Assembly: GCA_964247235.1 (NCBI GenBank)
Contig: CAXTTJ010000005.1
Location: 9,065-73,064, forward strand
Direction: 5' to 3'
Length of the DNA: 64,000 nt
Source: an uncultured Sphingomonadaceae bacterium
Lineage (GTDB): Bacteria; Pseudomonadota; Alphaproteobacteria; Sphingomonadales; Sphingomonadaceae
In this document: positions 17,837-25,071 of the stretch, piece by piece
Position numbering within the stretch: the stretch's first letter is position 1
Layout: every line of letters begins with the position of its first letter
Translations under genes and position numbers: made by a program
Notes under the pieces: generated by a model
Told to the model about the DNA's origin: nothing
The model's database searches: none
What the model saw: the letters and a program-made list of their open reading frames with translations, nothing else

Positions 17837-19852
17837 TCATTCCGCTGCCTCCAGCATGTCGCTCCCGTGCAAAATTTCCGCCGAACATAGCTGCATCGTC
17901 GGGCTCGCGCGGCAGATGGCGTTGGTCAGGTAGAAATCCTTGATCGGATAACCCGCCATTTCGGCCCTTGGTGATTTCGGCAGTTTCGGCGGGTTCCAGC
18001 CATAATCGGCCAATCCCTCGACGCCAAGCGCCGGAACCTCGGCAAACATCGCGGCACGCAGGCCATCATAGCTATCGAACGGCAGCGTGTGGCCGAGCAC
18101 CTGCGACAGTGCCCGCAGGATCGTCCAGTCCTCACGCGCGTCTCCCGGCGGGAAGACGGCCCGCTCGCCGCGCTGCACACGCCCTTCAAGGTTCACATAA
18201 GTCCCCGGCTTTTCGGCGTAGCTCGCGCCCGGCAGCACGACATCCGCCGCTGCTGCGCCCCCCCGAACAGACGCGTCGCCATGATGGCCGATATAGACTT
18301 TGAACGAAGACTTGAACGCCGACCAGTCGACTTCGTCAGCGCCAAGTGCGAACACCAATCTGGTTCCCCGAAGCGCCGCGATCCCGCCCGGCTGCGCATA
18401 GCCGAGCATCAGCCCGCCCATCCGCGCGGCTGCCATATGCAGGACGTTGAACCCGTTCCAGCCGTCACGCACCAGCTTGTATTTGTCTGCTATGGCAAGC
18501 GCGGCGCCATGGACACCATCAACCGCCAGAGCACCGCCGCCAACGATGATCGCGGGCCGTTCGGCCACCGCCAAAGCATCCGACAGCACCTTGGGCAAGC
18601 GCGACAAAATGCCCAGCTCGCTTCCAAGCCAATGCGCCTTATAAGTGAGGTCAACCTCCGGCCCGATGGCAAAAACCTTCCCCCCACGCTTGATCGCCTT
18701 GCGCACGCGCGTGTTCACCAGGGGCGCTTCCCAGCGCAAATTCGTGCCGATCAGAAGAACCATATCGGCACGCTCGATGCCCGACATTGTGCTGTTGAAA
18801 TTCACTGCACTCAACGAAGAAACATCGTATTTCAAGCCATTTTGCCGCCCTTCAAACAAATCGCTACCCATCAAACGAACCAGATGCTTTGCCGCATACA
18901 TGGTTTCGCAGTCGACCAGATCGCCCGCAACCGCAGCGACGCTTGACCCTGCATCAACAGCCTGGATCGCCGCGAACGCTTCGTCCCATGTTGCCGCTTC
19001 CAGCTTGCCATTCCGCCGCACATACGGGCGATCGAGACGCTTCCTTACAAGGCCATCGACGGCATGGCGCGTCTTGTCCGACGCCCATTCCTCGTTTACG
19101 TCTTCGTTGATCCGCGGCAGCGCGCGCAGCACCTGCCGTCCGCGTGAATCGAGCCTGATGTTCGTCCCCACCGCGTCCATAACATCAATGGCGGGGGTCT
19201 TTTTCAACTCCCACGGCCGCGCCTCGAACGCATAGGGTTTGGACGTCAACGCACCTACCGGACACAGATCGACGACATTGCCCGACAATTCGGACTGGAT
19301 CGCATGTTCCAGATAGGTGGTGATCTGCATCGATTCACCGCGCCCGATTGCGCCGATATCCTCGACGCCCGCGACTTCCTCCGCAAAGCGGATGCAGCGC
19401 GTGCACTGGATGCACCGCGTCATCACCGTCTTGACGATCGGCCCCATATATTTCTCGGTCACGGCGCGCTTGTTTTCGTCATAGCGGCTGATGCCCTTGC
19501 CATAGGCGACCGACTGGTCCTGCAAATCGCATTCGCCGCCCTGATCGCAAATCGGGCAATCGAGCGGGTGGTTGATGAGCAGAAACTCCATCACCCCCTC
19601 GCGCGCCTTCTTCACCATCGCGCTGTCGGTGCGGATCGCCTGTCCCTCGGCGGCCGGAAGCGCGCACGACGCCTGCGGCTTGGGTGGCCCCGGCGCGACC
19701 TCGACCAGGCACATGCGGCAATTGCCCGCAATACTCAGGCGCTCATGATAGCAGAAACGCGGGATTTCCTTGCCCGCAAGTTCGCAGGCCTGAAGCACAG
19801 TAGCGCCAGCGGGAACTTCGATTTCGACGCCGTCGACAGTGAGTTTAGGCAT
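17837..19852 (-). CDS. nuoG: NADH-quinone oxidoreductase subunit G
   Basis: FCYHERLSIAGNCRMC, HPLDCPICDQGGEC, RCIQCTRC. Confidence 0.98.
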   Translation of the reverse strand: MPKLTVDGVEIEVPAGATVLQACELAGKEIPRFCYHERLSIAGNCRMCLVEVAPGPPKPQASCALPAAEGQAIRTDSAMVKKAREGVMEFLLINHPLDCPICDQGGECDLQDQSVAYGKGISRYDENKRAVTEKYMGPIVKTVMTRCIQCTRCIRFAEEVAGVEDIGAIGRGESMQITTYLEHAIQSELSGNVVDLCPVGALTSKPYAFEARPWELKKTPAIDVMDAVGTNIRLDSRGRQVLRALPRINEDVNEEWASDKTRHAVDGLVRKRLDRPYVRRNGKLEAATWDEAFAAIQAVDAGSSVAAVAGDLVDCETMYAAKHLVRLMGSDLFEGRQNGLKYDVSSLSAVNFNSTMSGIERADMVLLIGTNLRWEAPLVNTRVRKAIKRGGKVFAIGPEVDLTYKAHWLGSELGILSRLPKVLSDALAVAERPAIIVGGGALAVDGVHGAALAIADKYKLVRDGWNGFNVLHMAAARMGGLMLGYAQPGGIAALRGTRLVFALGADEVDWSAFKSSFKVYIGHHGDASVRGGAAAADVVLPGASYAEKPGTYVNLEGRVQRGERAVFPPGDAREDWTILRALSQVLGHTLPFDSYDGLRAAMFAEVPALGVEGLADYGWNPPKLPKSPRAEMAGYPIKDFYLTNAICRASPTMQLCSAEILHGSDMLEAAE

Positions 19853-19992
19853 TATTCCACCGCCTCCAGCAACTCACCACCATCACGCTCGTTGATCCGC
19901 CGCCCGATCTCAGGCCGGAAGTGCTTGATCAGCCCCTGGGTCGGCCACGTCGCGGCGTCGCCCCGCGCACAAATGGCATGACCTTCGGCTTG
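19852..19992 (-). pseudogene. Decayed duplicate of the nuoF 3' end
   Basis: Translates to [46 protein letters not shown], versus Nuo[46 protein letters not shown]. Ends in a TAATG overlap with the nuoG start. Confidence 0.9.
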
Positions 19993-20027
19993 CGGTCTAC
20001 AAATTGTTATATGAAGCATCGGCCCGC

Positions 20028-20255
20028 TCAGTGCGCTGTATCGGCGAGGCCGAGCCGCTTTTCAATTTGGTCAACGCGAACTTTCAAGTCCGAGATGTCA
20101 CTCTGCATCCCATAAACAGAGGTCATCAAGCCGCGCATATGTTCCTCGATCGAAGCCAGTCGGATGCCTTGCGACAATTGCTCGCGTTTGACACCACCCA
20201 AATCACCTTGAATTGATTTCAGTATTTCCAGCATCAAGTCGTCGCGGTCGGTCAT
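20028..20255 (-). CDS. 75-aa coiled-coil hypothetical protein (cargo A)
   Basis: Heptad pattern; similar to the ORF at 22434-22661. Confidence 0.8.
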
Positions 20256-20263
20256 TTTAATTC

Positions 20264-21559
20264 CTATTCAGCGGCTTGTAGCACAGGTTCGGCACGTTCG
20301 TTAATCCGCCGCTCTAATTCGGGCCGAAAATGCCTGATCAGCCCCTGGATCGGCCACGCCGCCGCGTCGCCCAGCGCGCAGATGGTGTGGCCTTCTACCT
20401 GTTTGGTCACTTCCTGCAGCAGGTCGATTTCGCCGATCTCCGCATCGCCGGTGCGCAGGCGTTCCATCATCCGCCACATCCATCCGGTGCCTTCGCGGCA
20501 CGGCGTGCACTGGCCACATGACTCATGCTTGTAGAAATAACTCAACCGCGAAATCGCGCGGACAATATCGGTCGATTTGTCCATTACGATAACCGCTGCG
20601 GTTCCCAGCCCTGATCCGACTGCCTTCAACCCGTCAAAGTCCATCGGGGCGTCCATGATCTGCGCGGCAGGGACGAGCGGCACGGACGATCCGCCGGGAA
20701 TGACCGCGAGCAGATTGTCCCACCCGCCGCGAATGCCGCCGCAATGCGTGTCGATGAGCTCACGAAACGGGATGCCCATCGCGTCCTCGACCACGCAAGG
20801 CTTGTTCACATGGCCGCTGATCTGGAACAGCTTGGTCCCTTCATTCTTCGGATTGCCGATCCCCGCAAACCATGGCGCACCGCGTCGCAGAATCGTCGGG
20901 ACGACGGCAATGCTCTCGACATTGTTGACTGTCGTCGGGCAACCATAAAGCCCCGCGCCCGCCGGGAACGGCGGTTTCAAACGCGGCTGGCCTTTCTTGC
21001 CTTCAAGACTTTCAAGCATCGCGGTTTCTTCGCCGCAGATATACGCGCCCGCGCCCCGGTGGACGAACACATCGAAATCATAGCCCGATTTGCAGGCGTT
21101 CTTGCCGATCAGTCCCTTGGCATAAGCCTCCGCCACGGCCGCGAACAGCACGTCGGTCTCACGGATATATTCGCCGCGGATGTAGATGTACGCGGCGCGC
21201 GCGCGCATGGCGTATCCGGCGATCAGCGCGCCTTCGATCAGCTTGTGCGGATCATGGCGGATGATCTCACGGTCCTTGCAGCTGCCGGGTTCGGATTCAT
21301 CGGCATTGATGACGAGGAAGTTCGGACGCCCCTCGGTCGGCGCCTTGGGCATGAAGCTCCACTTCATCCCCGTCGGGAAGCCAGCCCCGCCACGCCCGCG
21401 CAGGCCGCTCGCCTTGACCACATCGATGATTGCGTCCTGTCCGACAGCCATCAACGCCCTGGTCTTGTCCCAGTCACCGCGCTTCATCGCAGACGCGAGG
21501 TTCCACGGCTGAAAACCATAAAGGTTCGTGAAGATGCGGTCCTTGTCTTGCAAACTCAT
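20264..21559 (-). CDS. nuoF: NADH-quinone oxidoreductase subunit F
   Basis: [45 protein letters not shown]. Confidence 0.98.
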
Positions 21560-21588
21560 GCGCCGCTCCCAGCCCGAAGGGCAAGAAA

Positions 21589-21727
21589 TGACTCACGCGA
21601 AGCCGCGAAGTCGCGAAGAGCAAAGCACTCTCGGCAGCCTCTGCGTGAACCCGAGTCGATTTCATCCAGAGGGCGCAGAGGATGCCGACAAAATAATCTT
21701 CGCGGCTTCGCGCCTTCGCGTGAGTCA
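21589..21727. repeat. Palindromic element 4 with nested second inverted repeat, nuoE-nuoF junction
   Basis: 31-bp outer arms at 21589-21619 and 21697-21727; inner arms TCGGCAGCCTCTGCG / CGCAGAGGATGCCGA. Confidence 0.9.
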
Positions 21728-21761
21728 AATTTACTTGCGCGCACGTGCGCGAGCATTGGCG

Positions 21762-22430
21762 TCATGCCCAGTCCTTCCGGTAGTCATGGTTCTTGCCGAC
21801 CATTGCGATCAACGTCGTCGGCCGCCCTTCGGGGCAGCTGACCTGCCGCGCGATCTGCGAACCCGGCGTCACGGCACGCCCCTCGGCAAGCGCACTCAGG
21901 ATGGCTTCCATGCTGTCATAAGTCAGGTCTTCGAAATTATCGTCGTTGATCTGGACCATCGGCGCGTTCGCGCAGGCACCCAGACATTCGACTTCGGTGA
22001 GGGTGAACAAGCCGTCGGCGGTCGTCCGCCCCTTCGCCATCCCCCGGTTCGCGCAGGCGGCGAGGACATCGTCCGACCCGCGCAACATGCACGGCGTCGT
22101 TCCGCACACCTGCACATGATAGCGCCCGACCGGGGCCATATTGTACATCGTGTAAAAACTGACGACTTCATAGGCACGCATATAGGGCATGCCGAGTTGG
22201 GCCGCGACAAACTCGATGACGGGCACGGGCAGCCACCCTTGCGCGTTCGTTTCCGCCCCCACCTGTCGCTGGGCAAGGTCGAGCAGCGGCATCACCGCCG
22301 ATTGCTGCCGCCCCGCCGGATAGCGCGCGATGATCTCGGCGGCCTTGGTGGCATTCGCCTTGGTCCAGGCGAATTTGCCCCACCGCGCGCGGGTCTCCGC
22401 TTCCTCGGGGATGTGGGTGGTGTCAGCCAC
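21762..22430 (-). CDS. nuoE: NADH-quinone oxidoreductase subunit E
   Basis: [27 protein letters not shown] start. Confidence 0.97.
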
Positions 22431-22433
22431 AGA

Positions 22434-22661
22434 TTATCGCGCCTCCGACAATTCAAGCCGACGCTCGACACGACCGAGGCGTTCGTCGAACTTGTCCATG
22501 CGATTGTTCAAACCGGATAGGCTGATCAACATCCCGCCCATATGCTCGTCAAGTGCGGAAAGCCGTGATTTCACGACCTGCATGTCGTCTTCTATATTGG
22601 TCAACCGGTCATCGATGCGACGTAAGCGTTCGAGGATCAGATTTTCAACATTGTCAGTCAT
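22434..22661 (-). CDS. 75-aa coiled-coil hypothetical protein (cargo B)
   Basis: [13 protein letters not shown]...RLGRVERRLEL; paralogous to cargo A. Confidence 0.8.
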   Translation of the reverse strand: MTDNVENLILERLRRIDDRLTNIEDDMQVVKSRLSALDEHMGGMLISLSGLNNRMDKFDERLGRVERRLELSEAR

Positions 22662-22930
22662 GCCGAAGCTCCTTTCTGAACAGCACTATAGCCAAATTCA
22701 TGGTCACGCGCGCGAGTTTCGGCTTCGTCGGGCATGTGGGGGGTGTCGCCATTTGCGATTTCCCTCGAACGCCTTTCGAGAAACGCCTTCCAAAAGAGGG
22801 CTGCAAACCCGAGAAAATTCGTGAGTAGAATTTCGTCTAACACGTCCAAACCACGCGCAAACTTGAGCACTAGCAAAACTAATGACGCGCCGACGCTCAT
22901 CTTTTGGATGGTATCGAGCACCCCAATCAC
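22658..22930 (-). CDS. Chimeric small ORF: about 60-aa membrane peptide fused to a nuoE 5' relic
   Basis: Two hydrophobic segments followed by [18 protein letters not shown] overlap with the nuoD stop and ATGA overlap with cargo B. Confidence 0.55.
22688..22752 (-). pseudogene. Decayed duplicate of the nuoE 5' end with a 1-nt deletion
   Basis: Restoring one T gives [16 protein letters not shown] versus Nuo[17 protein letters not shown] (13/16 identical). Confidence 0.85.
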
Positions 22931-24177
22931 CGGTCACACTCCCCGAACACGATGTCCATCGCGCCGAGCACGGCGGTCGTGTCCGCGAGCATGTGGCCCT
23001 TCATCATGAAGTCCATCGCCTGCAAATGGCTGAACGCGGTCGGGCGGATTTTGCAGCGATAGGGTTTGTTCGTCCCGTCGCTGACCAGATAGACGCCGAA
23101 TTCGCCCTTGGGGCTTTCGGTCGCGACATAGACTTCGCCGGCGGGGACGTGGAAGCCCTCGGTATAGAGTTTGAAATGGTGGATCAGCGCTTCCATCGAT
23201 CGCTTCATTTCGGCGCGTTTGGGCGGCACCACCTTGCGGTCGTCGCTGGCGATCGGCCCCTCGGGCATTTGCGCCAGGCACTGTTTCATGATGCGCGCCG
23301 ATTGACGCACTTCCTCGACGCGGACCATGAAGCGGTCATAGCAATCGCCGCCACCTCTACCAATAACATTGCCCACCGGCACGTCGAAATCCATCCGGGC
23401 GTACACATCATAAGGCTGCGACTTGCGCAGATCCCACGCGATGCCCGAACCACGGATCATCGGCCCCGAAAAGCCCCAGCGCACCGCATCATCCTTGGTG
23501 ACCACACCGATGTCGACATTGCGCTGCTTGAAAATGCGGTTGTCGGCGACGAGGCTGATCGCATCCTCGAACAGTTGCGGCAGGCGCGTGTCGAGCCAGT
23601 CGGCAATGTCGGTGAGCAGCTTCAGCGGCACATCCTGATGCACGCCGCCGGGCCGGAAATAGGCGCAATGCATTCGCGCACCCGATGCGCGCTCGAAAAA
23701 GTTCATGCAGTCTTCGCGGATTTCGAACATCCACAAATTCGGCGTCATCGCACCGACGTCCATCACATGCGACCCGAGGTTGAGCATGTGATTGGAAATG
23801 CGCGTCAATTCGGCGAAAAACACTCGCAGATATTGCGCGCGCAACGGGACGTCGAGATCAAGCAGCTTCTCGATCGCGAGCACATATGAGTGCTCCATGC
23901 ACAGCGGCGAACAATAATCGAGGCGGTCGAAATAAGGCAGCGCCTGAAGATAGGTCTTATGCTCGATCAGCTTTTCGGTGCCGCGGTGGAGCAGCCCGAC
24001 ATGCGGGTCGCAGCGCTCGACGATTTCGCCGTCGAGTTCCATGACAAGCCGGAGAACGCCATGCGCGGCCGGGTGCTGCGGCCCGAAATTGATCGTGTAA
24101 TTCTGAATTTCGACATCGCCGGGGGTGGGCTTTTCGCCGTCGGTCTCCGTGCGAAATTGTTCGAGCGTTTCAGCCAC
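22927..24177 (-). CDS. nuoD: NADH-quinone oxidoreductase subunit D
   Basis: [47 protein letters not shown] at 24177. Confidence 0.97.
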
Positions 24178-24217
24178 AATAAATCTCCGCCGCGCTTGCG
24201 GCATTCAAAACCTTCAT

Positions 24218-24316
24218 CTTCGCGCCTTCGTGCCGTCGTGTGAAATCACGTCCTGTCTTCTCAACCTTGGCGAAGAAGGAGAAAAATGCCTCACACGAAA
24301 GCACGAAGGCACGAAG
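24218..24316. repeat. Palindromic element 5 (CACGAAGG variant), nuoC-nuoD junction
   Basis: 26-bp inverted arms at 24218-24243 and 24291-24316, three mismatches. Confidence 0.85.
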
Positions 24317-24333
24317 GTGGGAAGAAATGGCAG

Positions 24334-25071
24334 TCATGCACCTTCCTTCGTCTTGCGCACACGCTTCGGTTTGGCGGCTTCGTTCGCGGCAGGCCCTGCG
24401 CCGGTGTCCGACGGTTTTTCGGTCACTTTTGGCGTCGCTGGCGGAGCAACCGGCGGAGCGGGCGCCACATATTTCTCGTCACCGGGAAGGATGTAGTCCG
24501 CACCTTCCCAAGGGCTCATGAAATCGAATGTGCGGAAATCCTGTGCCAACCGCACCGGTTCGTAGACGACACGCTTGGCGTCTTCGGAATAGCGCAGTTC
24601 GACATAGCCGGTCAGCGGGAAATCCTTGCGCTGAGGGTGCCCGCGAAAACCGTAATCAGTAAGGATACGGCGCAAATCGGGGTTACCGCTAAACAGCACG
24701 CCATACATGTCGAACACTTCGCGTTCGAGCCACCCCGCGACCGGCCACAGCCCCGTGACCGACGGCACGGCCTGAACCTCATCGGTTATTAGCTTTACGC
24801 GGATACGATGGTTTCTTGTCAGCGACAGCAGATGATAAACCACCTCGAACCGTTCAGGCCGGTCGGGATAATCGACGCCGGCAATTTCCATGAGCTGCTG
24901 ATAGCCGCAGTCATCGCGCAGCGCGGTCATCACCGCGACGATGGCCTCGCGTTTCACTGTCAGCGTCACTTCACCGACCAGATCGACCGCGTCGAGCACA
25001 GCCTTGCCACAGGCCTTCTTCGCAGCGGCAATCACACCCTTGTTCGGTGCATAGGCGGGCGCACAATGCAT
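24334..25071 (-). CDS. nuoC: NADH-quinone oxidoreductase subunit C
   Basis: [28 protein letters not shown]; Pro/Ala/Lys-rich tail. TGATG overlap with nuoB. Confidence 0.96.

Follow-up and report, generated by a model that had tools for sequence, protein, structure and literature searches.

Small ORFs of no known function, known as URFs, are reportedly interspersed among the complex I genes of the nqo/nuo clusters of Paracoccus denitrificans and Rhodobacter capsulatus and co-transcribed with them. The nuo operon analyzed here, which lies in a 64,000-nucleotide stretch of DNA from an uncultured Sphingomonadaceae bacterium (the window), likewise carries small ORFs of no known function between nuo genes and on the same strand; the gene order on the minus strand is nuoD, a 90-aa ORF, cargo B (a 75-aa gene with a predicted coiled coil) and nuoE (Table 1). 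In contrast to the URFs, the occupant of the nuoD/nuoE junction differs from species to species, such occupants (lodgers) can be stacked, and leftovers of the nuoE start mark the joints and begin bridging mini-ORFs. To our knowledge, species-variable occupants, stacking and relic-marked joints have not been described for the nqo/nuo URFs, and we found nothing specific in the literature on lodger ORFs at nuoD/nuoE.

Two further systems provide a frame for this locus. Overlapping stop and start codons of the ATGA type couple trpE-trpD and trpB-trpA of Escherichia coli by termination-reinitiation. The window locus resembles these pairs in its overlaps (GTGA, ATGA and, in related loci, ATGGCTGA) and in having a Shine-Dalgarno sequence within the upstream ORF, but what is joined here is a set of inserted accessory ORFs plus a gene relic, not stoichiometric subunits, and translational coupling across these overlaps is predicted from the sequence. 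In addition, dusA-specific integrase islands are said to insert in the 5′ end of a housekeeping gene and to supply a replacement 5′ end. As in those islands, a displaced 5′ end remains upstream as a relic in the window and the working nuoE has a different (GTG-type) 5′ end beside the insert, but the locus lacks both an integrase and an att site, the insert is a single gene of about 0.3 kb, and little points to a foreign origin of the working 5′ end. The idea of a foreign nuoE 5′ end was dropped, as no clear recombination breakpoint emerged when nuoE was compared, by sliding-window identity, with relatives that have or lack cargo B.

Table 1. Features of the nuoD-nuoE region, in window coordinates.
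Feature	Coordinates	Strand	Remarks
nuoD	22927..24177	-	416 aa; Pfam Complex1_49kDa; gene call in L047 gives the same 416-aa product
90-aa fusion ORF	22658..22930	-	61-aa lodger gene plus 29-aa tail encoded by relic and leader; same ORF in L047
Part homologous to the free-standing 61-aa ORF	22748..22930	-	92% nt identity to L023
Relic nuoE 5′ end	22707..22752	-	46 nt; ATGGC-GAC...GCGCGCG; nt similarity to nuoE starts
Cargo B leader	22662..22706	-	GCTAT motif and Shine-Dalgarno AAGGAG; in the window translated (predicted) as the end of the 90-aa ORF
Cargo B	22434..22661	-	75 aa, predicted coiled coil
nuoE (functional)	21762..22430	-	222 aa; PF01257, E = 1.6e-53; GTG start 3 nt past the cargo B stop

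Analysis of the joints revealed that the genes of this region are tightly packed. The 3′ end of nuoD reads GACCGGTGA (...GAGTGTGACCGGTGA over a longer stretch), and its TGA stop (22929-22927) overlaps the GTG at 22930 that begins the 90-aa ORF (GTGA, 22930-22927). The stop of this ORF at 22658 in turn overlaps the cargo B ATG at 22661 (ATGA, 22661-22658), and both joints therefore have the overlapping stop/start pairs that structurally characterize coupled genes. At its other end, nuoD starts from a GTG within the 8-nt sequence GTGGCTGA (24177-24170), overlapping the stop of an upstream 55-aa ORF, an overlap that the initial annotation had reported and that is real. The promoter scan gave no minus-strand match in the cargo B leader, the RNA fold showed no unusual structure at the joint (z = -0.13), and Rfam returned no known RNA family in 21500-24500, its sole matches being chance miRNA-hairpin hits on two REP-like inverted repeats. 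These repeats, rich in CGCGAAG, occupy the nuoC/nuoD (24215-24319) and nuoE/nuoF (21596-21720) gaps on the minus strand, and each sits within an open ORF (55 and 69 aa, respectively) that overlaps the neighboring genes.

The segment following the 61-aa part of the 90-aa ORF is a copy of the nuoE 5′ end (ATGGCGACACCCCCCACATGCCCGACGAAGCCGAAACTCGCGCGCG). Over 41 nt it matches the nuoE start of the window at 85% identity, and its identity to the genuine nuoE starts of 22 congeneric species is 85-94%, with all matches stopping at 22707; it thus shows significant similarity to the end of its parent gene, is truncated and adjoins an insertion, as a relic of a gene end should. The relic matches the genus-type start more closely (up to 94%) than the GTG-type start of the window itself (85%), which suggests, from a difference of a few bases, that most of the relic derived from a real nuoE start of the type found in L023, a relative described below. 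Real nuoE starts in the genus read ATGGCTGAC, and relative to these the relic, reading ATGGC-GAC, is short of one base, the T of ATGGCTGA, between 22748 and 22747. The present upstream frame (...GCA AAT GGC GAC ACC...) carries on in the frame of nuoE until the TGA of GCATGA; restoring the T would close it after 61 codons, at the TGA of ATGGCTGA. Loss of the T has therefore removed the stop of the 61-aa ORF and fused the ORF into the relic frame up to the ATGA overlap with cargo B. A relic start with one T missing, a stop for the upstream AT-rich ORF if the T were present, and a fusion running on to cargo B had all been proposed in the initial annotation and were all borne out.

Two of the three frames across the relic and the leader are open, and both end on overlaps with the cargo B start. 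The second of these, read from the T-less relic ATG (22752) and lying within an open frame at 22654-22806 on the minus strand, ends at ATGACTGA, an 8-nt overlap with that start. Two possible additions to the relic were rejected: derivation of the sequence TGACCATGA after it from the end of nuoD (GTGACCGGTGA), by analogy with the L013 scar described below, was considered, but the similarity proved too short, and a faint likeness of the leader to nuoE +48 to +70 (FGYS vs FAWT) was not distinguishable from chance.

Comparison with a second assembly indicated that the missing base is genuine. The window genome is a 79-contig draft, which leaves room for a sequencing or assembly error with ATGGCTGAC as the true sequence. 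However, a contig of an independent assembly with the same gene order as the window (L047, ENA ERZ22857857; 128.5 kb, coverage 24) has the same T-less sequence, despite 64 mismatches and no gaps against the window over 6273 nt (98.98% identity), and the site is not a homopolymer. The presence of the T-less state in two diverged, independent assemblies and at such a site makes an error very unlikely. The 90-aa sequence of L047, recovered in the protein search, differed at one residue, A88T. Within 22400-22960 the sole difference between L047 and the window is base 22669; this is the last G of the cargo B AAGGAG ribosome-binding site, and the same change gives A88T in the fusion tail.

The protein search also recovered a 61-aa protein that matches residues 1-61 of the 90-aa ORF at 93% identity, and with it the relative for which the initial annotation had called, in which the 61-aa ORF is coupled directly to nuoE. 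In this JGI metagenome contig (L023) the order is nuoD-GTGA-61-aa ORF-...GCAAATGGCTGACGCC...-nuoE, with the ORF stopping at ATGGCTGA (8-nt overlap), exactly as it would in the window with the T restored, and joined to a full nuoE. Between L023 and the window the ORF DNA is 92% identical, compared with 85% for the adjacent 900 nt of nuoD and 84% for the first 294 nt of nuoE, and in this one pair of sequences the codon differences are nine synonymous to four non-synonymous. The higher conservation of the ORF than of its flanks, together with the excess of synonymous changes, is consistent with a real coding sequence that has been exchanged between lineages. The 61-aa part encodes two moderately hydrophobic segments (helices) and has a GC content of 49.7%, compared with 59.6% for nuoD and 64.4% for nuoE. 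The protein search found three sequences in all, none of the 40 further species representatives of the genus carries the DNA of the ORF, Pfam and NCBIfam assign the 90-aa ORF to no family, and exact-pattern metagenome scans for the relic/leader joint and for a conserved 27-mer of the 61-aa ORF gave no match. The same scans did not recover a T-containing allele with both the 61-aa ORF and cargo B.

Examination of about 20 congeneric genomes (L004-L022 among these) showed that the nuoD/nuoE junction is hypervariable. The gap between the two genes ranged from 0 to 750 nt and held a different ORF each time, of 52-198 aa and in most cases with a hydrophobic or signal-like N-terminus. Nearly all of these ORFs begin at the GTG of the nuoD GTGA, and their ends lie at the nuoE start or overlap it (ATGGCTGA or TGATGGCTGA); a few end in TAATG or TAAATG. 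Across more than 20 genomes the slot ORFs are mutually non-homologous and almost all lack a family, one being a superinfection-immunity protein (PF14373). In two genomes the junction is free of a lodger (GACCGGTAATGGCTGAC). In another sphingomonad lineage (L039, L041), a Cupin_2 gene (123 aa; 1259-1630 in L039) is lodged between nuoC and nuoD.

Lodgers can also be found in tandem, with a remnant of nuoE at the joint. In L013 (G036:C3; about 947-1498, nuoD-to-nuoE orientation) two different cassettes, the second being the PF14373 superinfection-immunity gene, are joined by a scar in which a TGCTCG microhomology connects 150 nt of the nuoE 5′ end to the final ~45 nt of nuoD; the scar itself is an open, bridging 62-aa ORF. 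Its structure bears the mark of two alleles having undergone unequal or illegitimate recombination. A relic of the nuoE start upstream of the cargo B leader occurs in two metagenomic loci (L045/L046), a Sphingorhabdus MAG (L050), a Sphingopyxis MAG (L056) and a locus from the window's own genus with a MITE in the joint (L055), and the module of relic, leader and cargo B therefore crosses sphingomonad genera, while the ORF upstream of it differs in every genome. A second relic follows cargo B in L058, and in L020 and L022 the order is relic, MITE and full nuoE. The MITE/REP-like element of L020, L022 and L055 is ~100 nt long (CCTCGTCATTGCGAGCGGAGCGAAG...CGCAATGACGGAGG) and directly follows the relic, and an open frame bridges it to the next gene.

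In each of the loci with the cargo B module, the homology of the relic to nuoE ends at +43 to +47, in a GCGCGCG run. Homology-facilitated illegitimate recombination, which has reportedly been described, or unequal recombination would explain the L013 scar and a short duplicated gene end beside an insert, but a near-identical breakpoint in several lineages is not usual for such events and points to shared ancestry or a hot spot. The clustering of breakpoints may stem from common ancestry followed by shuffling, or from a hot spot within the GCGCGCG run.

The architectures of these relatives bear directly on what the loss of the T achieved. The initial annotation had read the 1-nt deletion as compensatory, restoring coupling. 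On this reading, the second insertion brought in cargo B and duplicated the nuoE start, thereby uncoupling the 61-aa ORF from what follows, and the deletion was selected because it coupled the ORF to cargo B and nuoE again. The deletion does yield a single frame from the nuoD GTGA to the cargo B ATGA, and read-through of the fusion would bring every ribosome to the ATGA; termination-reinitiation at overlaps such as ATGGCTGA is usually less than fully efficient. The slot ORF of L039 is, moreover, likewise fused into the leader frame. However, with the T in place the window would read 61-aa ORF, ATGGCTGA, 31-aa mini-ORF, ATGA and cargo B; the relic ATG would overlap the stop, and its frame would be open to the ATGA, so that coupling would never have been interrupted and the deletion would have merged two already coupled ORFs, with nothing to restore. 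This unfused arrangement persists elsewhere: in L050, L056 and L045 the stop of the upstream ORF lies at the ATGGCTGA start of the relic or overlaps it, followed by a relic mini-ORF of 24-65 aa, ATGA and cargo B, and L048 and L049 have a cognate form, a mini-ORF (MAR...) that begins at ATGGCC after a TGATG overlap and is followed by cargo B. A compensatory mutation presupposes a defective prior state, and the persistence of T-containing architectures in other lineages, with the unfused state kept in at least five and retained over a long time in several, gives no sign of a pressure to fuse. The cargo B gene also has its own conserved Shine-Dalgarno sequence, and with two of three frames over relic and leader already ending on its start, no special mutation was needed. 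We therefore consider a compensatory role unlikely. With continuity of translation unchanged by the deletion, we read it, on balance, as probably a fusion of two frames that were already coupled, tolerated and near-neutral, rather than as a repair, while fusion may have brought a modest benefit, for example by delivering more ribosomes to the cargo B start than would arrive after termination-reinitiation.

Bridging frames were open and in phase at every comparable locus, including L020, L022 and L013, where the MITE or the scar is bridged in this way. When the non-homologous part of each bridge was shuffled, the probability of an open frame was 0.16-0.57, which multiplied by 1/3 for phase gave 0.05-0.19 per locus; taken as independent, six loci together give ~3e-6, though they share a homologous leader and are not fully so. 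This regularity also weighs against the possibility that the stretch between nuoD and cargo B makes nothing functional, the 90-aa frame being an accident in decaying inserted DNA and the deletion inconsequential. The absence of family matches, the existence of just three sequences, the moderate hydrophobicity of the segments and the unremarkable RNA fold would all fit such decay. On the other hand, between the window and L023 the ORF is better conserved than the flanking core genes and changes mainly at synonymous positions, and it starts and ends exactly on overlaps in two different contexts. We regard an accidental frame as quite unlikely, and translation of the 90-aa ORF and of the mini-ORFs is expected from their open frames and overlaps. 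We infer that open bridging frames have been kept because untranslated gaps in a long essential operon would be harmful through polarity.

These results suggest a history in which the nuoD-nuoE junction of this Sphingomonas-like genus would serve as a slot for promoterless lodger genes, read by the ribosomes moving along the operon. The window allele would hold two lodgers, one being the 61-aa hydrophobic ORF, which elsewhere ends on the nuoE start (ATGGCTGA), and the other an older module consisting of the 46-nt nuoE leftover, a leader with a ribosome-binding site, cargo B and a GTG-start nuoE. The two parts join within the leftover nuoE start, as recombination in that short shared sequence would yield, the left part coming from an L023-type allele and the right part from a relic-leader-cargo B-GTG-nuoE allele; alternatively, an insertion may have duplicated the nuoE-start sequence. 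The immediate ancestor presumably carried the T and would have read 61-aa ORF, ATGGCTGA, 31-aa relic mini-ORF, ATGA, cargo B and nuoE, with continuous translation, until loss of the T merged the 61-aa ORF and the mini-ORF into one 90-aa protein with a hydrophilic 29-residue tail. As an explanation of the whole locus, a two-lodger allele in such a slot with a near-neutral fusion by T loss appears likely.

The two-step history put forward in the initial annotation, with a first insert coupled to nuoE and a second that duplicated the nuoE 5′ end, is upheld as far as the two lodgers and the intermediate with the 61-aa ORF on nuoE (L023) are concerned. The order of the two inserts, in contrast, does not follow from these data, as the module is shared by several genera and a double crossover with nuoD or the 46-nt segment as one arm would give the same product whichever parent was the recipient. 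The window allele may just as well have arisen by a recombination that brought the 61-aa ORF in ahead of the older module, on its upstream side.

A broader and more tentative reading treats the first ~46 nt of nuoE as a docking and re-initiation module that promoterless lodger genes use again and again. Cassettes between copies of it would be acquired, lost and reshuffled in sphingomonads by RecA-type recombination (loop-out, Campbell-type or double-crossover events), and selection against untranslated gaps, through Rho polarity, would keep every joint, relics and MITEs included, open and in phase. We hold this reading to be possible but doubtful. If true, the locus would be an integrase-free analogue of an integron inside an essential operon, and the loss of the T one visible outcome of a constraint that has been met in more than one way. 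The cassettes are not of the integron type, as there is no integrase in the operon and the cassette ends are copies of the nuoE start rather than palindromes; an attC-type palindrome test found the RNA and DNA folds of the joint unremarkable.

The 1-nt deletion itself is an ordinary, small event, and the interesting part is its setting, a hypervariable slot for lodgers that is bridged by translation. The locus would represent a dated snapshot of a tightly packed essential operon taking up and stacking foreign genes without breaking, with lodgers sitting exactly on stop/start overlaps and leftover gene starts reused as the starts of short bridging frames. Uninterrupted translation would be reachable in two ways, by a stop/start overlap or by fusion. 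If this constraint is confirmed, it would provide a simple rule for the insertions that an essential operon tolerates and a natural site for the expression of passenger genes.

Finally, comparison of cargo B with its relatives showed a family common in the nuo operons of Sphingomonadales. In S. melonis, S. kyungheensis and others cargo B is itself the slot ORF, starting on the nuoD GTGA, and in other genomes the family occupies the E/F or F/G junction. The window genome has a paralogue, cargo A, between nuoF and nuoG (30% identical, E = 6e-10), and no copies of the family beyond these two; profile searches with cargo B gave sub-threshold coiled-coil matches only. The cargo B Shine-Dalgarno sequence AAGGAG (22674-22669) lies 7 nt before the ATG, inside the upstream ORF, and is kept across leaders; a GCTAT motif and an AAGGAG-type ribosome-binding site are common to the leaders of the window, L048, L049, L050 and L055, indicating that the leaders are homologous. 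A GTG start of nuoE correlates with the presence of cargo B directly upstream. The divergence of cargo B between lineages is about that of nuoD, nuoE and nuoF (against L039, 82% identity for cargo B and 85, 78 and 79%, respectively, for the three nuo genes), and a recent horizontal arrival was rejected since cargo B is no more similar between lineages than these genes are.

Cargo A is followed by a relic of its own. At 19852-20266 of the window, the gene precedes an open 55-aa leftover of the nuoF 3′ end, which is 78% identical to the genuine end at the aa level and has a PF10589 match. The stop of this leftover overlaps the nuoG start, an arrangement that mirrors the nuoE relic. Outside Sphingomonadales, in Caulobacterales, Hyphomonadaceae, Hyphomicrobiales and Rhodobacterales, neighbor clustering placed the cargo B coiled-coil family in the ATP synthase operon, with atpG (F1 gamma) on one side and atpD (F1 beta) on the other, in at least 18 of the 24 loci checked (loci from among L065-L085, L091, L093, L099, L100 and L104, with the cargo gene at about 2501-2722 in each), and the family thus resides inside two different essential bioenergetic operons.
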